DNA of 64,000 nt from a virus. Taxonomy: Duplodnaviria > Caudoviricetes. A program made the position numbers and the translations under genes. The stretch spans positions 21,625 to 85,624 of IMG/VR virus record IMGVR_UViG_3300030376_007431; one strand, written 5' to 3'. The first letter of the stretch is position 1. Each line of letters starts with the position of its first letter. Below the pieces are notes generated by a model, which was not told the origin of the DNA, ran no database searches, and saw only the letters and a list, made by a program, of their open reading frames with translations. Shown here piece by piece: positions 1 through 27,466 of this stretch.

Positions 1-1670
1 GAGTAAGAGCTACAGGCGGTTATATAAAGGGCACAAACGGCAAATCTACAGGGCTTGTGCCTTGGCTTAAGATATTCAATGACCTGCTTGTTGCAGTTAA
101 TCAAGGAGGGAAGAGAAAAGGTGCTGGGTGTGCATATATTGAACCTTGGCATCTAGACATTGAGGATTTCTTAGATCTCAGGAAAAACACTGGCGATGAT
201 CGTCGCAGATGTCACGATATGAACACAGCGCTATGGATTCCAGACGATTTTATGTTAGCTGTTTCAAAGAACCAAGATTGGTATTTATTTGATCCTTCTG
301 AATGCCCAGAGCTACATGATACATACGGTAAAGAATTTACTAAAATGTATAAGAAATACAAAAAGGCTGCTGACAATGGAGAATTAAAAAATTATACAAT
401 CATCAATTCTAAAGATTTGTGGAAAAAGATTCTCACAGCCCTATATGAAACTGGGCATCCTTGGATTACATTCAAAGACCCATCTAATATAAGATATTCT
501 AATAAGCATGAAGGGGTAGTGCATTCATCTAACCTATGTACAGAGATCTTATTACATACAAAACCCACCGAGTATGATGAAGGTGAGATTATCGAGGTTG
601 GAGAGACTGCGGTGTGTAATTTAGCGAGTGTCAACTTGTCTTCACACCTTAAAGTCCGCACCATAGATTGGAAAAAGCTACAAAAAACTGTAGAGGTTGC
701 CGTGAGAGGCTTGGATAATGTAATAAATTTAAATTTTTATCCAACTAAAGAGGCAAAGAAGGCAAACCTAAAACATAGACCTGTTGGTCTTGGAATTATG
801 GGCACTCATGATGTGCTACATAGACTAGGAATACCTTACAATTCTCAGGATGCAGTGGTATTGTGCGGGAAAATACAAGAGTTTATCTCCCTGCATGCAA
901 TCAAAACTTCAGCATTATTAGCTAAAGAAAAGGGAGAATACCCCTCTTTTGAGGGTTCTCTTTGGAGTCAGGACAAATTTCCAATAGATACTTATTGTGA
1001 TTTGATGAATCAGAGACATACTCATAAGCCAGAAAATGTGTATAAGAGAGTGGACTTTGAGAGCTTTGAAGAAGAGTGGGATGAGGTTAGGGAATTAGTA
1101 AGAAGACATGGTATGCGTAATAGTAATGTCATGGCGATTGCTCCTACCGCAACTATTTCATATATTCAAGGCTGTTCGCAGTCTATTGAACCAGATTACT
1201 CAATTCTTTATGTTTATTCAACACTCAGTGGTGAGTTCACAATGGTCAACGAGCATTTTGTCTCAATGGCAAAGAAGAAAGGTATTTGGTGTCAAGAGTT
1301 AGTGGACGCTCTTAAAACTGCTGACGGAGACGTTATGGCAGTTGATTTAGATGAGGATATTCAAAGAGAGTTTATGACGGCTTTTGATATTGAACCAGAA
1401 ATTTTAATTAAGGCTGCGGCTGAAAGGCAGAAGTGGATTGACATGGGACAGTCACTGAACCTTTATAACAAACACGACAGTCTTAAATTTTTAAATGACC
1501 TATATTTTTGTGCTTGGGAAAACGGTTTAAAAACTACATATTACCTAAGAGGCAAAGCCGCAACTCGGCTAGAAAAATCAACTGTTAGTTTTAAATCAAC
1601 CGAAGAACCGACAACAGAAGAAATTAAGGCCTGTTCTATTTTAGATCCCGGATGTGAGAGTTGTCAATGA
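1..1670 (+). CDS. nrdA: Ribonucleotide reductase class I alpha subunit (5'-truncated by window edge)
   Basis: Frame is open from base 3 (VRATGGYIKGTNGKSTGLVPW...). Motifs QGGKRKGA, SNLCTEI (active-site Cys), AIAPTATIS, GLKTTYYLR and C-terminal CxxC (GCESCQ). Confidence 0.97.
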   Translation, partial: VRATGGYIKGTNGKSTGLVPWLKIFNDLLVAVNQGGKRKGAGCAYIEPWHLDIEDFLDLRKNTGDDRRRCHDMNTALWIPDDFMLAVSKNQDWYLFDPSECPELHDTYGKEFTKMYKKYKKAADNGELKNYTIINSKDLWKKILTALYETGHPWITFKDPSNIRYSNKHEGVVHSSNLCTEILLHTKPTEYDEGEIIEVGETAVCNLASVNLSSHLKVRTIDWKKLQKTVEVAVRGLDNVINLNFYPTKEAKKANLKHRPVGLGIMGTHDVLHRLGIPYNSQDAVVLCGKIQEFISLHAIKTSALLAKEKGEYPSFEGSLWSQDKFPIDTYCDLMNQRHTHKPENVYKRVDFESFEEEWDEVRELVRRHGMRNSNVMAIAPTATISYIQGCSQSIEPDYSILYVYSTLSGEFTMVNEHFVSMAKKKGIWCQELVDALKTADGDVMAVDLDEDIQREFMTAFDIEPEILIKAAAERQKWIDMGQSLNLYNKHDSLKFLNDLYFCAWENGLKTTYYLRGKAATRLEKSTVSFKSTEEPTTEEIKACSILDPGCESCQ

Positions 1671-1804
1671 GATTTGTTGAGTTTAAACAGTCTGGAACAT
1701 CGCCAGTAAAATATAGACTAGAAATTAATTCAGAAGAAGCCGAAAAAGTTAAGGACTTATTGCAGGAAATTATTGAGAGATTAAGTAAAAATGAAAAAAA
1801 CTAA
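1667..1804 (+). CDS. Small hypothetical protein (45 aa, MRFVEFKQSG...) between nrdA and nrdB
   Basis: ATGA overlap with the nrdA stop, open to TAA at 1802-1804. Below the ORF-track length cutoff. Confidence 0.55.
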   Translation: MRFVEFKQSGTSPVKYRLEINSEEAEKVKDLLQEIIERLSKNEKN

Positions 1805-2798
1805 GCAGATTATATCAGATAAAGTAGCGAGTGTAAATCAAATTCTTCCTCATGTAAATAAATGGGCTTGGGATTTATTCATAGATGGTGCGGCTAATAA
1901 CTGGATGCCAACCGAAATTTCTATGGCTAAGGATATAGAGCAGTGGAAATCCAACTCATTATCCGAAGATGAGAGATTGGTAGTAAAGAGATGTCTAGGA
2001 TTCTTTGCTGGCTCAGAGTCTTTGGTCGCCAATAACTTACTGCTTAGCGTGTTTAAGTTTGTAACAGATCCAGAATGTCGCCAGTATATTCTACGTCAAG
2101 CATATGAAGAAAGCCTGCACAACTTAACGGTGGTATATATTTGCGACTCACTGAGTCTAGATATCGACGAAGTATATCAAGCATATAATTCAGTCCCTAG
2201 CATTAAAGCTAAAGACGAGTTCTTGATGAATATTACTAGTGATATAAATCGTCCTGACTTCAACATAAACACATTGGAAGGCAAGAGAGAGTTTCTTCGT
2301 AATATCATAACATATTATATTATATGCGAGGGGATATTCTTCTTCTCTGGTTTTGCTATGCTATTATCCTTTAATAGGCAGAACAAGCTTCCGGGAATTG
2401 GTGAACAAATCCAATACACTCTTCGTGATGAGAGTATACATATTGATTTTGGGACTACACTTATCAATAGATTAAGAGAAGATAACCCTAAAATTTGGAC
2501 AAAAGCTATGGAAAAAGAAACCATTGAGCATATTGATACAGCTATGGAGCTTGAATTAGCTTACGCTAGAGATGTGTTGCCGAATGGTATTCTAGGATTG
2601 AACGCAGATATGTTTATTGACTATGTTCAATTTATTGCGAACAGAAGGCTTACTAACTTAGGTCTGCCATCACCATATACGAATGCACAGAATCCATTCC
2701 CTTGGATGAGTGAAATAATAGATTTAGAGAAGTGTAAAAACTTTTTTGAGACGAGAGTTACAGAGTATTCAGTGGGTAATTTAGTGGACGATTTTTAA
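1791..2798 (+). CDS. nrdB: Ribonucleotide reductase beta subunit, class Ic (R2c)-like
   Basis: Ferritin-like ligand motifs EESLH, CEGIFF, RDESIH and C-terminal NFFETRVTEY. First ligand is Glu (GSESL) and the radical-Tyr position is Val (HNLTV). Confidence 0.95.
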   Translation: MKKTKQIISDKVASVNQILPHVNKWAWDLFIDGAANNWMPTEISMAKDIEQWKSNSLSEDERLVVKRCLGFFAGSESLVANNLLLSVFKFVTDPECRQYILRQAYEESLHNLTVVYICDSLSLDIDEVYQAYNSVPSIKAKDEFLMNITSDINRPDFNINTLEGKREFLRNIITYYIICEGIFFFSGFAMLLSFNRQNKLPGIGEQIQYTLRDESIHIDFGTTLINRLREDNPKIWTKAMEKETIEHIDTAMELELAYARDVLPNGILGLNADMFIDYVQFIANRRLTNLGLPSPYTNAQNPFPWMSEIIDLEKCKNFFETRVTEYSVGNLVDDF

Positions 2799-3942: not shown

Positions 3943-5196
3943 GTGTTAGACTTTATTTTTGATCGCAGGAACTTTTTAAGAGTAGGAAGTATTGGTGCTG
4001 GACTCAGTGCAGTAGGGTTATCTGACTATGCTTTGGCTCAGGAAACTCTGTCACACGAAGATAAAGCTGTTGTTTGGGTATGGCTTGGAGGAGGGCCAAC
4101 TCAATTTGAGACATTTCATGCTCCTAATGACACGGTTCCAACTGAATGGCAGCCAATCAATGGCGCGATTCATGATGCCAAAACTAATATTACGCTAGGA
4201 GCTGACTGGACTGAGTTAGCTAAACATACTAGCAAGATGAACGTAATCAATTCATTTAGCCATAGGGATTCTTCTCATCGCCAAGGTACTCACTTCATGA
4301 TGACTGGACACTATAATCCAGAGAGAACAACTACATCCATAACGAAGTACCCATCTTTTGGTTCTATAATCTCTGCCGTTTACGGGGCTAATCATCCTCA
4401 AAATGGAGTACCCACATATGTTAAACAAGGTAAAATCGAAGGTGATGAAGGTGCTTGGTTGGGCGGAGCATATAAACCTTTCGATCCATCCAATAAAGAC
4501 AACCTTACCCCAAGAGTTGAACTTAATAGATTCTCAACAAGAAAAGAATTGCTCAGAGGACTCGACGCCGCCAGAGTAGCTGGACAAAGCGCAGACTCTG
4601 TGGACTTTTATAAGGGTCAGGCATATGATGTAATTCTAGGCTCAGCCAAAGATGCTTTTTCTACAGATAAAGAAACAGAAGCAACAAAAAAACTATACGG
4701 ATCAGAGAAAGCCAACGATATCGGTGAACAATTAATGCTAGCTCGACGACTAGTAGAACATGGAACAAAATTTATAACTTTACATTACGGTGGCTGGGAT
4801 ATGCACTCTAATATTTCTAACGCTTTGAAAGGCAAGGTTCCACCTATTGACAAGGCTCTAGCTGGATTTATGCAAGATGTGTCTGATAAGGGTTTAAGTG
4901 ATAAAGTATTATTAGTGGTCACTGGTGAATTTGGCAGAACTAAGATCAACGCCAATGCTGGTCGTGACCATTGGCCATCAATCACACCAATGTTTATGTT
5001 TGGTGGGGATTACCAATCAGGCAGAACTATTGGAGAATCAGACAGATCATATAGTCCAATAGAGAACCCAGTTGGGCCATTGGATTTACAAGCAACACTA
5101 TTTAATCATTTCGGAATAGATAAAGGCATTCAGCGTGTAGATAACGGCGGAAGGCCTAGATATTTACTGGAAGGCGAAGCAAAGGTAATATTATAA
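3943..5196 (+). CDS. DUF1501 family protein 1 (alkaline-phosphatase/sulfatase-like fold) with Tat signal
   Basis: Tat motif DRRNFL, then WLGGGPTQFETF, SHRQG..MMTG, GGWDMH, GEFGRT and GRDHW. RBS AAGGAG precedes the GTG start. Confidence 0.9.
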   Translation: MLDFIFDRRNFLRVGSIGAGLSAVGLSDYALAQETLSHEDKAVVWVWLGGGPTQFETFHAPNDTVPTEWQPINGAIHDAKTNITLGADWTELAKHTSKMNVINSFSHRDSSHRQGTHFMMTGHYNPERTTTSITKYPSFGSIISAVYGANHPQNGVPTYVKQGKIEGDEGAWLGGAYKPFDPSNKDNLTPRVELNRFSTRKELLRGLDAARVAGQSADSVDFYKGQAYDVILGSAKDAFSTDKETEATKKLYGSEKANDIGEQLMLARRLVEHGTKFITLHYGGWDMHSNISNALKGKVPPIDKALAGFMQDVSDKGLSDKVLLVVTGEFGRTKINANAGRDHWPSITPMFMFGGDYQSGRTIGESDRSYSPIENPVGPLDLQATLFNHFGIDKGIQRVDNGGRPRYLLEGEAKVIL

Positions 5197-6107
5197 TGAA
5201 AAAAGAAAACTATGCAAGTGCATTTAATGAATATTTAAACGAAACAGGTTACACCGAAGAGCTTACAGAGGAGAATTTCTATGTGCCTGCGGAAGCGGAA
5301 TATGTAGACTTTGGTGAAGATACTGAAGACTGGGATATTGCAGAGGCAAAACCCGGACTTTGGGAAAATATCCGCAAGAAGAAGGAAAGAGAAGGTAAAA
5401 ATTATAGGCCTGCTCGCACTGAAAAAGAAGGTAGGCCGAGTCAAGAAGAATTAAAGAAAGCTAAGTCTGATAAGCCCTCCAAGGGCGATCCTCGAAGAAC
5501 TCCTGCCCCCAAGAAAGACCAGAAGAAAGGATCTAAAAAGAACAAGCCAGACAGCGCGAAGAACCCAAGCGGCAAGATTACTTTTAGCAAAGAGGTAACA
5601 AAGCAGTTATCAAATAAGGTTAAAGAACATAATGCTAAAGGCAAAGGTTCAAAGGCTAGTCTTGGGATGTTAAAAGCTGTATATAGAAGAGGTGCTGGCG
5701 CTTATTCTACAAGCCATGCACCAAAGATGAGTCGTCATGGTTGGGCTATTGCTAGAGTAAATGCTTTCCTGACATTGCTTAGAACTGGCAAGCCATCTAA
5801 TTCTGCATATAAGCAAGATAATGATCTATTGCCAAAAGGTCATCCTAGAAAATCTAAAGCGGCAGAATATCAAGGTAGAAAAGTCACTTTGAACAAACCA
5901 TTTAGAACTCCAGATGGGCCAAAGAAATTTGCGGTATATACTAAGAATGGATCTGGTAAGGTTGTCATTGTACGATTTGGCGATCCAAATATGGAGATCA
6001 AAAGAGATAATCCAAAAAGAAGAAAAAGTTTTAGAGCAAGACATAAATGTGATACAGCTCCGGGCCCAAAGTGGAAAGCTCGGTACTGGTCTTGCAGAAT
6101 GTGGTAA
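5196..6107 (+). CDS. Lys/Arg-rich mosaic phage protein made of short basic modules (putative DNA-binding or head-internal protein)
   Basis: Acidic N-terminus followed by modules GLWENIRKKK, TPAPKKDQKKGSKKN, LKAVYRRGAGAYSTSH..WAIARVNAFL and AEYQGRKVTLNKPFR..KARYWSCRMW, which I recognise from environmental phage proteins. Confidence 0.6.
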   Translation: MKKENYASAFNEYLNETGYTEELTEENFYVPAEAEYVDFGEDTEDWDIAEAKPGLWENIRKKKEREGKNYRPARTEKEGRPSQEELKKAKSDKPSKGDPRRTPAPKKDQKKGSKKNKPDSAKNPSGKITFSKEVTKQLSNKVKEHNAKGKGSKASLGMLKAVYRRGAGAYSTSHAPKMSRHGWAIARVNAFLTLLRTGKPSNSAYKQDNDLLPKGHPRKSKAAEYQGRKVTLNKPFRTPDGPKKFAVYTKNGSGKVVIVRFGDPNMEIKRDNPKRRKSFRARHKCDTAPGPKWKARYWSCRMW

Positions 6108-6117
6108 AGGAAATTTT

Positions 6118-7416
6118 ATGAATTGTAAAGGTAATCGCAGATCTTTTCTGCATGTTGGTTTTTTGGGTGGGCTAGGCTTAACTTTATCGGATTACTTCCG
6201 AATGGAGAAGCTTCAGGCTGACCAGAAATTTTATGAAAGTATTGAAGGCCCAGCAAAGTCTGTTATTTATATTTATTTGCCGGGAGGTTCAGCACATCAA
6301 GAGACATTTGATCCTAAACCTTTTGCTCCACTTGAGTACAGAGGGCCAATGTCTAGTATTGAAACAGTAGTTCCCGGAACTAGGCTTAACGAAATGATGG
6401 CTAAAACAGCCAAAGTCACAGACAAGATGACTATCATTCGCAGTATGACTCATGGAGAAGCAGCTCATGAACGAGGCACACATAATATGTTTACTGGTTA
6501 TAGACCTAGCCCAGCCCTTCAATACCCATCAATGGGTTCAGTGGTGGCGCACGAGTTTGGCCCTCGCCAAAACCTTCCTCCATATGTCTGTATCCCAAAC
6601 CAACCTAATGAATATGCAGGTACTGGATATTTAAGCAGCTCGTTTTCAGGCTTTAGTTTAGGCGCTGATCCAGCAAGTGATGGATTTCAGGTTCGAGATT
6701 TGAAACTACCTAACGGAGTCAATGATGGTAGATTTGGCAGTAGAAGAAAAATGCTTTCCGCAGTCAATGATTACTTTGCCACTAAAGAAAAGTCAGACTC
6801 TTTAGATGCTGTAGATAGTTTCTATGACAGAGCGTATAGTCTAATTAGCAGTGAAAAAGCTAGAGATGCTTTTGATATCAACAAAGAAAGCGATGCAATG
6901 CGAGATAAGTATGGTAGAAATACCGCTGGAGCCCGCATGCTTTTAGCTCGACGTTTAGTAGAAGCTGGAACACGTTTTGTCACGCTCACTTATGGTGGAT
7001 GGGACATGCACAATAATATAGAAAATGGTATTCGTGGACAAGTACCCGCACTAGATCAAGGGCTTGCGGCTCTTATTGAAGACCTTAGTGATAGAGGCAT
7101 GCTAGACTCAACATTAGTTTGCTTAGCTTCTGAATTCGGTCGCACGCCTAAGATTAATGCAACCGCTGGGCGTGACCACTGGCCAAAAGTGTTTAGTGTA
7201 GTTATGGCTGGAGGAGGAATACAAAGTGGAATGATTTACGGAAGCTCCAATGCTACAGCAAGTGAGCCAGAAGATAATCCAATGACAGTAGAAGACTGGG
7301 CAGCTACTATCTATAATAGAATTGGTATTGTTGCTGACAAAGAGCTTATGGCTCCCGGCGATAGACCTATAGAAATTGTAGACGGTGGCAAAGTTAGACA
7401 AGACTTAATTGTATAA
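6118..7416 (+). CDS. DUF1501 family protein 2 with Tat signal
   Basis: True start is most likely ATG 6118 (MNCKGNRRSFLHVG...), not 5914. Motifs YLPGGSAHQETFDPKP, AHERG..MFTG, GGWDMH, SEFGRTP and GRDHW. Confidence 0.92.
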   Translation: MNCKGNRRSFLHVGFLGGLGLTLSDYFRMEKLQADQKFYESIEGPAKSVIYIYLPGGSAHQETFDPKPFAPLEYRGPMSSIETVVPGTRLNEMMAKTAKVTDKMTIIRSMTHGEAAHERGTHNMFTGYRPSPALQYPSMGSVVAHEFGPRQNLPPYVCIPNQPNEYAGTGYLSSSFSGFSLGADPASDGFQVRDLKLPNGVNDGRFGSRRKMLSAVNDYFATKEKSDSLDAVDSFYDRAYSLISSEKARDAFDINKESDAMRDKYGRNTAGARMLLARRLVEAGTRFVTLTYGGWDMHNNIENGIRGQVPALDQGLAALIEDLSDRGMLDSTLVCLASEFGRTPKINATAGRDHWPKVFSVVMAGGGIQSGMIYGSSNATASEPEDNPMTVEDWAATIYNRIGIVADKELMAPGDRPIEIVDGGKVRQDLIV

Positions 7417-8968: not shown

Positions 8969-10183
8969 ATGAAGAGACGCAACTTTTTAGCTTCTGTAGC
9001 GAGCGTAATGTCGCTAGCAGAAACTGTCAAAGCGAATCAAGAAGAGTTGAAAAAAAATGGTAAATCCGCTATCCTGTTATGGATGGGCGGCGGCCCTTCA
9101 ACGATGGACATCTGGGACTTAAAATCCGGCGCTCCAACAGGAGGCCCTTTCAGGCCTATAGCTACTAGCGGAGATGTTCAGATTAGTGAGCATATGCCTT
9201 TAATGGCTAAACAAATGCATAACGCCGCCATTATTAGAAGTATGAGTACTCGTGAAGCTGACCATATGCGTGGTCGTTATTATATGCACACCGGCTACGT
9301 TCCTAATCCATCTATTGACCACCCAAGCTATGGGTCTGTCCTATCCCATCAACTCCGACGAAAAGATTTGTCGATCCCCCAATTCATCTCAGTGGGAGGA
9401 GGAAGTATGGGCGCAGGTTTTCTGGGAGCTAAATACAATCCGTTCATGGTAAATAGTGATGGTAGAATTAGAAATCTAGATATGAAAGTAGATGAAAGAT
9501 TTTATCAAAGAGCTTACGCTTTAGATGCAATTGAAAATAACTTTATAAACCAGAGAAGAGGATCATTAGCAAAAGAACATCAGGCGATCCTTAAAGAGAC
9601 ATTTAATGTTCTAACGAGCGCCCAAATGGATGCGCTTAAAGTAGCTGGTGAACCTGACAATATAAAAGAAAGATACGGAGACAATAACTTTGGTAAGGGG
9701 TGCTTGATGGCACGGCGTTTAGTCGAAGCAGGAGTACCATTTATTGAAGTTAATCTAGGTGGCTGGGATAATCACCAGAACATTTTCCCTACATTAAGAG
9801 ATACGAAACTGCCCATGTTAGATCAAGGCATGAGCGCGCTGTATGAAGATTTAGAGCAGCGTGGGTTATTACAAGACACAGCGATTATTTGGATGGGTGA
9901 GTTCAGTAGGACTCCTCGTATCAACGGTAATGCTGGTCGTGACCACTGGGCACGAAGCTGGAGTGTTGTCGTTGGCGGAGCCGGAATGAATGGCGGTATC
10001 GCTATTGGCGAAACAAACTCAGATGGTACTCGTGTGGAAACCGAACCATATACATCTCAGGATGTCATGGCTTCCGTTTGCAAAGCGCTTGGTATTTCTT
10101 TGGGTACTACGTTTACTAGCAACAGTGGTAGACCTATGAAAATCGCTAACTCTGGTAAGGTCATAACCGAACTGTTTGGTTAA
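8969..10183 (+). CDS. DUF1501 family protein 3 with Tat signal
   Basis: MKRRNFL Tat motif, WMGGGPSTMDIWD, DHMRG..MHTG, GGWDNH, GEFSRTP and GRDHW. Confidence 0.92.
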   Translation: MKRRNFLASVASVMSLAETVKANQEELKKNGKSAILLWMGGGPSTMDIWDLKSGAPTGGPFRPIATSGDVQISEHMPLMAKQMHNAAIIRSMSTREADHMRGRYYMHTGYVPNPSIDHPSYGSVLSHQLRRKDLSIPQFISVGGGSMGAGFLGAKYNPFMVNSDGRIRNLDMKVDERFYQRAYALDAIENNFINQRRGSLAKEHQAILKETFNVLTSAQMDALKVAGEPDNIKERYGDNNFGKGCLMARRLVEAGVPFIEVNLGGWDNHQNIFPTLRDTKLPMLDQGMSALYEDLEQRGLLQDTAIIWMGEFSRTPRINGNAGRDHWARSWSVVVGGAGMNGGIAIGETNSDGTRVETEPYTSQDVMASVCKALGISLGTTFTSNSGRPMKIANSGKVITELFG

Positions 10184-10484
10184 TCTTATGAAATTTTTTA
10201 GAAACGCAGTTTATGTGCTATTTTCTTTATCTTTACTGAATTTAGCGGGCTCTTTCTATATGTATAGACATATAATGAATAGGAGCAATATAATAGAGGT
10301 TAAAATTCCTATGTCGGAAGACCTCAAGGATCTACCTTTGCATACAAGACTCAGAGATTCACAGATTATGCAAGCGATCCTTATGACTCATCACCAACTC
10401 GGTATACATGAGCCCGGCTCTCAGCCGATGTGTCCAATGTGTCAAGATTCAGAAATTAAAACTATAACAGTAGAGAATAATTAA
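10176..10484 (+). CDS. Membrane-anchored protein with a His/Cys metal-binding motif
   Basis: N-terminal TM helix and C-terminal THHQLGIH..MCPMC. Confidence 0.55.
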   Translation: MVNLMKFFRNAVYVLFSLSLLNLAGSFYMYRHIMNRSNIIEVKIPMSEDLKDLPLHTRLRDSQIMQAILMTHHQLGIHEPGSQPMCPMCQDSEIKTITVENN

Positions 10485-11182
10485 TGGCAAGACAACCAAA
10501 GAAGAAGCCCGCAACTAGACAACGCCGTAAAATACTTCGACCAAAGACTAGAAATCAAGAAGACTATATGGGTCACATTCATAAGTCTGACGTGACATTC
10601 TGTTCAGGGCCAGCAGGCTCAGGAAAGACCAGCGTATCTGTAGGAATGGCCTGTGAATACTTGATCGAGAAAAAGGTAGATAAAATCATTATCACTAGAC
10701 CTGTCGTAGAATCCGGTAGAGGTTTAGGCCACCTTCCGGGAACACTAGTTGAAAAAATAAATCCGTATCTAATACCTATACTAGAAGAGATGAATCACTA
10801 TCTCACTAGAAATACCGTTGAGACTTACAGAAATAGAAATATTATTGAGTTATGTCCTTTGGAATATATGCGAGGTAGAAACTTTCATAATTGCTTTATG
10901 ATACTTGACGAGGCTCAGAATGCCACATTTGAGCAGATTAAAATGTTTATTACTAGAATTGGCAAGGATTCTAAAGCTGTAATAAATGGAGACTTAAGAC
11001 AGTCCGATCTAGGTAAACAACAAGGAGGTTTGCATACCTGTATGGAAAAATTAGTTGAGGTCTCCGGTGTAGGAGTCTGCGAACTTGACTATAGCGATAT
11101 TGTGCGAAGCGATATTGTCTCCAAGATTCTTATAAGACTAAACAAGAAAGAAGATGACGATGAACCAGTTAAATATTTTTAG
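10484..11182 (+). CDS. phoH: PhoH family ATPase
   Basis: SGPAGSGKT, ITRPVVE, GHLPG, YMRGRNF, ILDEAQN and GDLRQSD. Confidence 0.96.
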   Translation: MARQPKKKPATRQRRKILRPKTRNQEDYMGHIHKSDVTFCSGPAGSGKTSVSVGMACEYLIEKKVDKIIITRPVVESGRGLGHLPGTLVEKINPYLIPILEEMNHYLTRNTVETYRNRNIIELCPLEYMRGRNFHNCFMILDEAQNATFEQIKMFITRIGKDSKAVINGDLRQSDLGKQQGGLHTCMEKLVEVSGVGVCELDYSDIVRSDIVSKILIRLNKKEDDDEPVKYF

Positions 11183-23447: not shown

Positions 23448-25019
23448 ATGAATTGGGTTCCATTAAATGTGAAGACGCATTTTAGTCTTCAGAGAGGATT
23501 CTCTAAACCTGACAAGCTAGCTAAAAAGTGCAAAGAATTTGGGTACACAGCTTGTGCTATTACAGACATTAATACTATTTCTGGAGCTGTTACATTCTAC
23601 AAAGAGTGCAAAAAGAATGGCATAAAACCTATAATTGGTTGCACTTTAGAGTTTGATAACGGCAAGAAGAAGACTCTCATTTCTAAGAACAAAAAAGGGT
23701 GGTATGCGTTAATTGACTTGGTGTCAAAAAAGAATATGTATGAAGACGATGTGGTATATAAACTTATACAGTCTTCGCTTGACGAGAATCTAATATGCGT
23801 TGATGGACTTAAGCAATATTCTACATACTATGTTGAGCCTTCCGAAGCGGAGGTACACAGAATATTATTGTGTTCAGGCATGAAGACAACAATGTCTAAA
23901 GCCAAATCCAAACTAGACTCGTTCAAACATCTAAAACCGTTCTTTTCCTCAGACGGTTTTTATTTGCCAAACATGCAAGAAGTTGAAGAAAAATATACAA
24001 GTGAGCAGATTGTTCTTAGTGTAGAGATAGCGGATCAATGTGAAGAGTATAACATCTTAGGCGCTCCAATGTTGCCAGAATTTGACTGTCCCGATGATTA
24101 CACAGAAGACGAATATCTAAAGCAGTTATGTAGGGACGGCTGGCGTAAATTGCTTACTGAGACTGGTAAGATTGACGACGAAACTAGAAAGCAACAGTAT
24201 CTCGACAGAATCAAAAATGAGATGGATGTTATATTTGAAGCTAAGCTTTCTGGATACTTTCTGATTGTTCAGGATATTGTCAACCATGTAAGGTCTCAGA
24301 ATTGGCTTCCGGGCCCCGGAAGAGGCTCCGCTGCAGGATGTCTGATTTCTTATCTGATTGGTATTACTGAAATTGACCCGATTGAGTATGATTTAATTTT
24401 TGAGCGGTTCTACAACGCTGGACGTAATACCGAAGATCACGTATCGCTCCCTGATATTGACTTAGACGTACCTGCAGAAAACAGGGATGAGGTAATAACA
24501 TACATCAAATCAAAGTATGGGCAAGACAACGTATCACAAATGATTACATTTAATAAGCTGCAGGGTAGAGCTGCACTTAAAGAAATCATGCGTATAAACA
24601 GCACTGTCTCTTTCGGAGAGATGAACGATGTAACCAAAAACATTCCTAATGAAGCCGATGTTTCTGACCTGATTGAGCAAAGCGGAGAGAAATCCTTGAT
24701 AAAGTGGACACTAAAATATCAGCCTGAAGTTTTGGATAGATGGTGTAAGTTGAACAGCGAAGACGATCTTGTGGGTCCTTTGTCGTTGGTTTTTGAGCAG
24801 GCTATGGACATAGAGGGAACGATCAAGTCGCAGGGTAAACACGCGGCTGGAGTAATCATATCATCGAATAAACTAACTCAAGTTTGCCCGATGGTGCAAG
24901 ATAAAAACAACAACCTTGTTGCTGGTTTTGAAATGGGAGACCTTGAAGAACAGGGACATGTTAAATTTGATATATTGGGCATTGACCTACTTAGTAAAAT
25001 AATGGAGATAAAAGAATAA
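23448..25019 (+). CDS. dnaE: DNA polymerase III alpha, N-terminal part (degenerate PHP + palm)
   Basis: AITD, GPGRGSAAG, LIFERFYN, SLPDIDLD, GKHAAGV and VKFDILG, then a stop codon. Confidence 0.93.
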   Translation: MNWVPLNVKTHFSLQRGFSKPDKLAKKCKEFGYTACAITDINTISGAVTFYKECKKNGIKPIIGCTLEFDNGKKKTLISKNKKGWYALIDLVSKKNMYEDDVVYKLIQSSLDENLICVDGLKQYSTYYVEPSEAEVHRILLCSGMKTTMSKAKSKLDSFKHLKPFFSSDGFYLPNMQEVEEKYTSEQIVLSVEIADQCEEYNILGAPMLPEFDCPDDYTEDEYLKQLCRDGWRKLLTETGKIDDETRKQQYLDRIKNEMDVIFEAKLSGYFLIVQDIVNHVRSQNWLPGPGRGSAAGCLISYLIGITEIDPIEYDLIFERFYNAGRNTEDHVSLPDIDLDVPAENRDEVITYIKSKYGQDNVSQMITFNKLQGRAALKEIMRINSTVSFGEMNDVTKNIPNEADVSDLIEQSGEKSLIKWTLKYQPEVLDRWCKLNSEDDLVGPLSLVFEQAMDIEGTIKSQGKHAAGVIISSNKLTQVCPMVQDKNNNLVAGFEMGDLEEQGHVKFDILGIDLLSKIMEIKE

Positions 25020-25234: not shown

Positions 25235-25923
25235 TGAATTACAGAGATATAATTGTTTTTGACTTTGAAACCGGATCTAGAAATCCACACAAGACACAGC
25301 CAACGCAAATCGCAGCTATCGCCCTTCATGGTCGTAAGCTGACGGTTCAACCCGGAGGAGTCTTTAACAGCGAAATCCGCCCCATTCTAGATGACAAAAA
25401 AGCGATTGAGGCAGGCTTTGATCCTATAGAAGACGAAGCTCTTGACATCACAGGCAAGACACGTAAAGCATTAGCCAAGGCGCCCCTACCTAAAACGGTA
25501 TGGCAGAAGTTTGAAGACTTTTGTAATAAGTTTAATTTTAGAGGCACATCTTATACTGCTCCTATTGCTGCCGGTTACAATATCATTGGTTTTGACCTGC
25601 CAATCGTTCAGCGTATGTGTGACATGCACGGGACTACTGACTCAAGAGGTCGCCAAACTGTGTTCAATCCGATCTTTAAGTTAGACTTGATGGATATGGT
25701 ATTCTCTTGGACTGAGAACAATAAGGACTTCAAGAGCCTCAGCATGGACTTTCTAAGAGACTATATGGGCTTCCCTGAAGAAAGCAAGGAGAACGCTCAC
25801 GACGCGCTACAGGACGTTAAAGACACAGCTAATATACTTATTAAGTTTTTAAAGTTCCAGAGAAACATTTCGGAAAAAACCAAATTTGAGAAAGCATTTG
25901 CAAATGGCGAATTCTACGTTTAA
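25234..25923 (+). CDS. DEDDh 3'-5' exonuclease (DnaQ/epsilon-like proofreader)
   Basis: ExoI VFDFETG, ExoII AGYN..FD and ExoIII AHDALQD. Confidence 0.88.
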   Translation: MNYRDIIVFDFETGSRNPHKTQPTQIAAIALHGRKLTVQPGGVFNSEIRPILDDKKAIEAGFDPIEDEALDITGKTRKALAKAPLPKTVWQKFEDFCNKFNFRGTSYTAPIAAGYNIIGFDLPIVQRMCDMHGTTDSRGRQTVFNPIFKLDLMDMVFSWTENNKDFKSLSMDFLRDYMGFPEESKENAHDALQDVKDTANILIKFLKFQRNISEKTKFEKAFANGEFYV

Positions 25924-27466
25924 TATTGATGACTATAATGACTCTGGTGTTTGGGATTTAATTTGTGAGGGACAAACAAAAGGTGTCTTTCAGTTAGAGT
26001 CACAGCTTGGCAGATCGTGGGCTAAAAGGGTGCGTCCTCGCAACATTGAAGAATTAGCAGCGTTAATATCTTTGATTAGGCCCGGATGTCTGAAGGCTTT
26101 TACCGAAGGTAAATCAATGACACAGCATTATGTTGACCGTAAAGCTGGTATTGATGAAGTCAAATATTTACATGAAAGTCTTAAGCCAATCCTTGAAGAG
26201 ACTTATGGGGTTCTTGTGTATCAAGAGCAATCCATGAAGATTGCACAGCAGCTTGCGGGATTTGATTTAAAGGAAGCGGATAGTCTTCGTAAGGCCATCG
26301 GTAAGAAAAAGGCAGACTTAATGAACCAGATCAAAGGGTCTTTCCTTGAGGGGGCCGTTTCTGTTGGAGGATTAGAAAAAGAAACTGCGGAAGAAATCTT
26401 TAGCTGGATCGAAAAGTCAAATAGATATGCGTTTAACAAGTCTCACGCTGTATCTTATGCTGTTAACGCCTACAGGAGCGCATACTGCAAACATTACAGA
26501 AAGGTAAAGTTTTTTGAGGTTTATCTAAATCACTCTGAAAGAAAACCAGATAGTCAACTAGAAATTAAAGAGCTGGTTTCTGATTCTAAGATGTACGATA
26601 TAGAAAATTTGCCACCCAGACTGGGCCATTTTTATGAAGATTTTACAGCCAAAGACAACACAATATATTTTGGGATTACTAGCGTTAAGGGCGTTGGTGG
26701 GTCAGAGGCAAATAAAATGCTGTCGCTTATACCTGATCTTGAGGAAAGGTTAGACAAGCAGTTTTCAGAGTTTACATGGGCTGATACGTTATTCAATTTT
26801 GGCCTCAAGATAAATAAGACATGTATGGAGTCTCTTATAAATGTTGGAGCCTTTAATGGTTCAAACAATAGAAAGCACCGAAATGCAATGCTTTATGAAT
26901 ACAAGAGCTATAGAAATCTTTCTTCTAGGGAAAGAGAATGGCTGTCGGAAAACTATCTAGACACAGCATCTTTGGTTCAAAACATTGATAATATGATAAA
27001 CAATCTAAAAATAAACTCAAATAGACTAATCAAGGTATTTGATGTTCGTAATGTTGTTGAGTCTCCTCCTTTTGATATATCCGATCATCCAGACTGGATA
27101 GCTGATACAGAAAAAAAGTATATGGGTACATCTCTAACATTTTCAAAAACCGATTCTATCCAAAGCTCAATAGTTGACTCTACATGTAAAGAAATATTAA
27201 CAGGTAAAACGGGTAAGGTAACGCTTGTCCTGCATGTGAACTCTCTTAGGGAATACACAACTAAGAATGGGAAAAATCCGGGACAGATCATGGCGTTCCT
27301 ATCAGTAGAAGATAGCACAGCTACGCTAGACTCGGCTATAGTATTCCCAGATGCGTATGAAGAATTCAAGGGTATATTGTACGAAGGTAATACTGTAATA
27401 GCATTCGGACAAGTTTCTAAGAAAAAAGATACAAGTTTGATCATTAACAAAGTGTCTCAAGCATAA
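25904..27466 (+). CDS. dnaE: DNA polymerase III alpha, C-terminal part (fingers, HhH, OB)
   Basis: GVFQLES, LIRPG, ETYGVLVYQEQ, LRKAIGKKK, YAFNKSHAVSY and OB-fold MAFLSVED..VFP. Likely start is ATG 25904. Confidence 0.93.
   Translation: MANSTFNIDDYNDSGVWDLICEGQTKGVFQLESQLGRSWAKRVRPRNIEELAALISLIRPGCLKAFTEGKSMTQHYVDRKAGIDEVKYLHESLKPILEETYGVLVYQEQSMKIAQQLAGFDLKEADSLRKAIGKKKADLMNQIKGSFLEGAVSVGGLEKETAEEIFSWIEKSNRYAFNKSHAVSYAVNAYRSAYCKHYRKVKFFEVYLNHSERKPDSQLEIKELVSDSKMYDIENLPPRLGHFYEDFTAKDNTIYFGITSVKGVGGSEANKMLSLIPDLEERLDKQFSEFTWADTLFNFGLKINKTCMESLINVGAFNGSNNRKHRNAMLYEYKSYRNLSSREREWLSENYLDTASLVQNIDNMINNLKINSNRLIKVFDVRNVVESPPFDISDHPDWIADTEKKYMGTSLTFSKTDSIQSSIVDSTCKEILTGKTGKVTLVLHVNSLREYTTKNGKNPGQIMAFLSVEDSTATLDSAIVFPDAYEEFKGILYEGNTVIAFGQVSKKKDTSLIINKVSQA

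Follow-up and report, generated by a model that had tools for sequence, protein, structure and literature searches.

A marine phage ribonucleotide reductase beta subunit with class Ic-type ligands and valine at the radical-tyrosine position

The gene nrdB of a marine phage (positions 1791..2798, + strand) encodes a class Ic-type R2, i.e., a beta subunit of class I ribonucleotide reductase (RNR) which features Glu as first metal ligand and Val in place of the radical tyrosine. A tyrosyl-radical-less R2 of this type had been put forward for the gene in the original prediction, and all eight of the first- and second-sphere residues examined here agree with it. The protein is probably a member of a viral lineage, designated 'subclass Ic-like', that is sister to the cellular NrdBz proteins, and there is a good chance that it functions as beta subunit in the phage's own aerobic class I RNR, with the oxidant stored on a Mn/Fe centre like that in the R2c of Chlamydia trachomatis (Ct R2c). 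The DNA analyzed, referred to as the window, comprises 64,000 nucleotides, i.e., bases 21625-85624 of the 85.6-kb IMG/VR virus record IMGVR_UViG_3300030376_007431. All coordinates refer to the window unless a locus is named, and the features of both RNR genes are located on the + strand.

The nrdB gene has an ATG start and an intact open reading frame of 335 aa, which matches PF00268 (Ribonuc_red_sm) with E 2.5e-79. Directly upstream lies nrdA, of which the window contains the 3' part encoding RNR alpha (3..1670; PF02867, E 1.2e-167 for the window portion), while the 5' end is cut by the window. The complete nrdA (L002:4848-7295, 815 aa) starts 778 bases ahead of it. Its product shows an ATP-cone (5-91; one found by Pfam), the all-alpha domain and the barrel, with P. 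aeruginosa NrdA (5IM3, E 3.3e-250) as the closest solved relative, and the translation includes the active-site motif NLCTE, the tyrosine pair (YY, in TTYYLR) and a C-terminal cysteine pair (CESC). Neither a second PF02867 match nor a second PF00268 match was found in the 85.6-kb record, the completeness of which is 55% (CheckV). Genes in the window are tightly packed, most of them on one strand, and include those for a UvsX-like recombinase, a DnaB-like helicase, a primase, a split DNA polymerase and glycosyltransferases, so that the phage assignment is sound. The two polymerase ORFs (23448-25019 and 25886-27466) are separated by other ORFs and correspond to successive segments of PHROG 405 (245-610 and 623-1055 of the profile). 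In addition, one island of the phage carries three DUF1501 (PF07394) paralogues (3943-5196, 5914-7416 and 8969-10183; E 2.3e-65, 4e-114 and 1.1e-101, respectively) with a DUF5824 protein (5196-6107) between them and a PhoH gene thereafter (10484-11182).

Comparison of NrdB with all PDB chains by phmmer returned Ct R2c as the top match (1SYY, 2ANI, 4D8F; E 5e-128), with about 57% identity over 324 residues as counted from the phmmer alignment, and the fold of the phage protein is fixed by this identity to a solved structure. The R2 of S. erythraea ranked second (6Y2N, E 2.5e-114); E. coli NrdB matched with E about 1e-15, class Id structures with E about 1e-12 and the R2lox 7QBK with E 1.3e-11. 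The alignment to Ct R2c is gapless from residue 4 to about residue 295, the radical site included. Therein, GSESLV stands over TAESLV of the chlamydial protein, by which Glu76 (codon GAG, 2016..2018) equals Ct E89, the first metal ligand, which is Asp in class Ia. Further downstream, EESLHNLTVVYIC stands over EEAVHTHTFLYIC of 1SYY. Accordingly, Val114 (GTG, 2130..2132) equals Ct F127 and E. coli Y122, the radical-tyrosine position at H+4, i.e., four residues after the ligand His110 (codon 2118-2120), and Tyr116 at H+6 (2136..2138) equals Ct Y129. The Glu, the Val and the Tyr at H+6 are thus located exactly where the original prediction had placed them.

The remaining functional positions were likewise assigned by the chlamydial alignment. 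First-sphere ligands are E76, E107, H110, E180, E214, and H217, and the second sphere is represented by E106 and D213. The stretch 2106..2123 comprises E106, the ligands E107 and H110, and Asn111, whereas 2325..2330 encodes Cys179 followed by the ligand Glu180 (Ct E193), and 2427..2441 spans D213, E214, and H217 (Ct D226, E227, and H230), the latter being also confirmed by the homologue alignment. All eight residues (8/8) match the NrdBzc pattern, E E H E E H for the ligands and E, D for the second sphere (PMC6370689, Tables 3, 4). Trp38 (1902..1904), which corresponds to the electron relay residue Ct W51, is invariant in the homologue alignment. Tyr209 (Ct Y222) and Thr210, the latter at the pocket position of Ct I223 and E. 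coli I234, are encoded at 2415..2420, and Tyr326, the equivalent of the radical-transfer residue Ct Y338, is found together with the C-terminal tail, which ends in DDF at residue 335, at 2766..2795. The first-sphere ligands alone do not separate class Ic from class Id or the Cyano SP clade (PMC6370689). Class Ic is further marked by Glu instead of Asp as first ligand, a redox-inert residue at the radical-tyrosine position, and the radical-transfer Tyr with the R1-binding tail, which separates R2c from R2lox; the phage protein exhibits Glu76, Val114, and Tyr326 with its tail at these places.

Conservation among close relatives is strict. The best 120 homologues (85-97% identity) originate from marine metagenomes, Tara among them, with contigs reaching 144 kb, and share the identical motif EESLHNLTVVY without exception (120/120). 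A scan of IMG/VR yielded 102 related viral stretches, 80 of which were fetched, and every one of these 80 features Glu76, Val114, and Thr210. Taking both sets together, Glu76 is kept in 200 of 200 relatives. The codons for Val114 in the 80 IMG/VR loci nevertheless vary (GTT 28, GTA 26, GTG 19, GTC 7), and all four ACN codons are in use for Thr210. As the residues at 76, 114, and 210 are kept despite this full synonymous spread, they are held by selection and not by chance. Judged from these sequences, nrdB is under strong purifying selection across about 200 viral relatives.

Relatives with Val or Ile at position 114 also differ from the canonical proteins in residues next to the ligands. In the following, proteins are denoted by their residues at positions 76, 114, and 210. 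Set against 57 relatives of the E-F-I type and 53 of the D-Y-I type, the Val/Ile clade shows Asn111 instead of Thr, Val or Ile instead of Phe or Tyr at 114, Cys179 instead of Phe or Met, and Thr210 instead of Ile, the latter being Ile in 57/57 and 53/53 of the relatives (110/110). Position 210 is equivalent to the Ile in the Phe-Phe-Ile pocket which surrounds the tyrosyl radical (PMC3824934). Proteins of the Leu type likewise feature Thr at this position. The link between Thr210 and an aliphatic residue at the site is suggestive, as it is based on two to three independent events on the tree, too few for significance in a sign test. Helix spacing implies that the four signature side chains probably cluster in space, and the changes at N111, V114, C179, and T210 beside the ligands might affect metal selection or the tuning of redox properties.

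Within the wider family, representatives of clusters at 50% identity combine first ligand and site residue as D+Y (46), E+F (25), E+V (10), E+Y (6), E+L (5), and E+I (4). A scan of species genomes with a 5-sequence alignment as query gave, among the matches listed, 80 loci, which were classified as E-F-I (50), D-Y-I (28), E-V-T (1), and E-I-T (1), with no Chlamydia locus among the matches listed. Phylogeny was derived from a quick IQ-TREE analysis of 72 rows, aligned by hmmalign to a query-derived profile, from which the trait columns 76, 114, and 210 were removed. Intein-bearing representatives were left out since hmmalign mis-aligned their C-terminal half. The tree was built from sequences other than C. 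trachomatis and the RNRdb references, and the relation to Ct R2c rests on the pairwise phmmer alignment. All eight Val/Ile rows form one clade with SH-aLRT 100, which is placed, with a weak support of 61, beside and not within the cellular NrdBz-like group. Proteins of the Ia type (D-Y-I) are interleaved with those of the Ic type (E-F-I) in the cellular group, and at least six switches between Tyr and non-Tyr are required on the tree. As one instance, a D-Y-I sequence from Planctomycetia branches within E-F-I sequences of Planctomycetales (L086-L088, L132, and other cellular loci). Planctomycetota sequences fall into the cellular group, apart from the phage clade, and the designation 'PVC type' in the original prediction is therefore appropriate only insofar as Chlamydia provides the archetype.

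The Val/Ile clade is viral in every member with readable context. A single E-V-T locus binned as Pseudomonadales (L083) might be taken as cellular; this was rejected, as its contig carries the same module of UvsX, DnaB helicase, and primase as the phage, which points to a misbinned phage. On that 44-kb contig (CAZYHH010000001.1, a MAG named 'uncultured Pseudomonadales'; L083, L171, L172), nrdA and a Val-type nrdB are followed by genes for a UvsX-like protein, a DnaB-like helicase, and a primase in the same order as in the phage. The Ile-type representative P0122 has phage-like neighbors, namely an nrdA with an intein and genes for RNA ligase, DHFR, and thymidylate synthase. The contigs of L084, P0126, and P0130 are too short for judging viral versus cellular context. 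Inteins recur in this family (P0121, P0123, P0127-P0134, and others; L166:1-2983): the P0122 contig encodes a NrdA of 1140 aa which contains an intein, besides a Hint/intein protein of 930 aa, and many related NrdB representatives are about 650 aa long with two separate query matches, which suggests inteins there as well.

How exceptional such a protein is for a phage depends on the collection considered. Among 50,697 GenBank phage records, 4,432 have a NrdB match, none of which exceeds 48% identity to the phage protein. The nearest records checked are class Ia proteins of the D-Y-I type, i.e., P. putida phages belonging to the Lauda group and a record labelled 'Acinetobacter phage'. The latter (L163; CAKLQH020000007.1, 'Acinetobacter phage MD-2021a', 134 kb) encodes PhzF and a LysR regulator, has its class Ia D/Y nrdB adjacent to nrdA, and looks like a bacterial chromosome. 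The sole E/F type among the GenBank phage records checked is a canonical E-F-I R2 with 33% identity in the hot spring virus Aquificae Joseph's Coat Spring virus (L165; BK013346.1). The predicted rarity in phages accordingly holds for GenBank and cultured phages. It does not extend to ocean viromes, where more than 100 IMG/VR contigs and, according to a 2026 preprint, 269 GOV 2.0 populations carry such genes (PMC12918982).

The substitution as such is not without precedent. Subclass Ic has been taken to include NrdBz proteins whose site residue is Phe, Leu, or Val (PMC6370689, citing Lundin 2009), and for R2c, substitutions by Leu, Ile, and Val are on record (PMC3824934, citing Hogbom 2010). 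The preprint describes an RNR clade of ocean viruses which is absent from RNRdb and was named 'subclass Ic-like', with an alpha closest to NrdAz and a beta featuring Ile or Val instead of Tyr; the 269 sequences account for 1.44% of the RNR alpha/class II sequences from GOV 2.0 (PMC12918982). It reports an anti-correlation of the clade with predicted iron, finds no trace-metal pattern, leaves the cofactor open, states that no Val/Ile member is characterized, keeps 'Ic-like' apart from Ic, and treats Ile/Val as atypical (PMC12918982). From this description we infer that the phage nrdB belongs to the clade, since it fits in every respect testable, membership being by description and not by sequence match. 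With the site substitution already documented for R2c in papers of 2013 and 2019 and the viral clade already named, the discovery value is limited.

The absence of Tyr at the radical site requires that the oxidizing equivalent sits on the dinuclear metal centre. The residues, their conservation, the clade and its viral setting are established by the sequences; metal identity and electron path are in the following inferred from Ct R2c. The beta subunit would pair with the NrdA encoded just upstream, and its Mn(II)/Fe(II) site would react with O2 as in the chlamydial enzyme. A subsequent one-electron reduction via Trp38 and Tyr209 would yield Mn(IV)/Fe(III), and during turnover Mn(IV) would take up an electron via Tyr326 and the Tyr-Tyr pair of alpha, resulting in the cysteinyl radical. 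In the viral lineage, this presumed chemistry would take place in a remodeled pocket, with Val/Ile for Phe, Thr for Ile, Asn for Thr after the His ligand, and Cys for Phe/Met before the fourth ligand.

An active Tyr-less beta could also operate with a cofactor, or by an activation chemistry, other than that of Ct R2c, the cofactor being, e.g., dimanganese as in class Id or high-valent diiron, in which case the viral Val/Ile clade would constitute a biochemically distinct class I subclass. The clade is fully supported as a separate unit and has its own near-ligand signature (N111, V/I114, C179, and T210), the preprint offers no trace-metal pattern for it and leaves its cofactor open (PMC12918982), and the first-sphere ligands of Ic and Id are identical (PMC6370689). 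Against this stand the close identity to Ct R2c compared with the distant class Id structures, the retention of all chlamydial activation and relay residues, and the second-sphere position 7, which is Glu106 as in Ic and not Cys or Ser as in class Id (NrdBi), where the site residue would moreover be Tyr and not Val and a close kinship to the beta of F. johnsoniae or L. blandensis would be expected. A different cofactor is hence regarded as rather unlikely, albeit as the most serious competitor of the Mn/Fe reading.

Considerably less probable is a NrdB without catalytic RNR function, which would lack a radical and assist another subunit, as yeast Y4 does, or act as an R2lox-like oxidase. Loss of the radical tyrosine is indeed known from R2lox and from R2 homologues without catalytic activity (PMC3824934), yet all six ligands are intact here, the C-terminal Tyr and tail, which are absent from R2lox, are present, nrdA is adjacent, the 55% complete record yielded no second nrdB that could be assisted, and the viral relatives are under the strong purifying selection described above. 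We consider this reading very improbable. The chance is slimmer still that the protein is an ordinary class Ia subunit with its radical on Tyr116, the loss of the tyrosine being an artefact of the alignment. A Tyr does follow two residues past the expected position, and an alignment placing it at the radical site had been named beforehand as the outcome that would speak against class Ic. This is not what was observed: there is no gap at this place in the alignment to Ct R2c or to D/Y relatives, the same Tyr occurs in the chlamydial protein and also in D/Y proteins which carry a Tyr at H+4, the first ligand is Glu and not Asp, and the helix position H+6 presumably points away from the ligand face.

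Among the known systems, the phage protein is closest to Ct R2c (1SYY, 4D8F). Both share the six ligands, the second-sphere Glu and Asp, the missing radical Tyr, the equivalents of W51, Y222, and Y338, and the Tyr at H+6. The phage NrdB differs by Val for F127, Thr for I223, Asn for T124, and Cys for M192, by the unlike C-terminal tail with its end DDF, by its carriage on a marine phage, by a partner alpha of 815 aa with one Pfam ATP-cone, and by not being nested with cellular R2c in the tree. The 'Ic-like' clade from GOV 2.0 has in common with it the origin from ocean viruses, the NrdAz-nearest alpha, and a Tyr-less beta with Ile/Val (PMC12918982), and close relatives of the phage protein stem from Tara and other marine metagenomes. 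The signature of Thr210, Asn111, and Cys179 finds no mention in the passages of that preprint consulted here (PMC12918982). S. erythraea R2 (6Y2N) and the cellular E/F NrdBz proteins, among them Saccharopolyspora loci of the E-F-I type, show the same ligand set and a Phe-type Ic architecture but are cellular, have a pocket of Phe and Ile, and belong to a group which mixes Ia and Ic. The Cyano SP cyanophage beta (P-SSP7; PMC6370689) is another phage-borne class I beta lacking the radical Tyr with Glu as first ligand; its second-sphere position 7 is Asp, and it branches apart from Ic, whereas the phage NrdB features Glu there and is close to Ct R2c.

As for the benefit to the phage, the tolerance to NO or oxidative stress suggested in the original prediction is speculative, being transferred from Chlamydia. 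Iron saving is at least as plausible for a phage of the sea. The anti-correlation with iron reported in the preprint is weak at best as support for a lower iron demand (PMC12918982).

Among the class I RNRs, the subclasses Id and Ie each brought new radical-initiation chemistry. A radical-Tyr-less clade which is so far viral-only and distributed ocean-wide is a ready candidate for the bench. The Val/Ile clade bears on the question whether a small aliphatic residue together with a Thr in the pocket still supports a Mn/Fe centre, and on whether phages of this kind lower their iron demand when replicating in iron-poor water.
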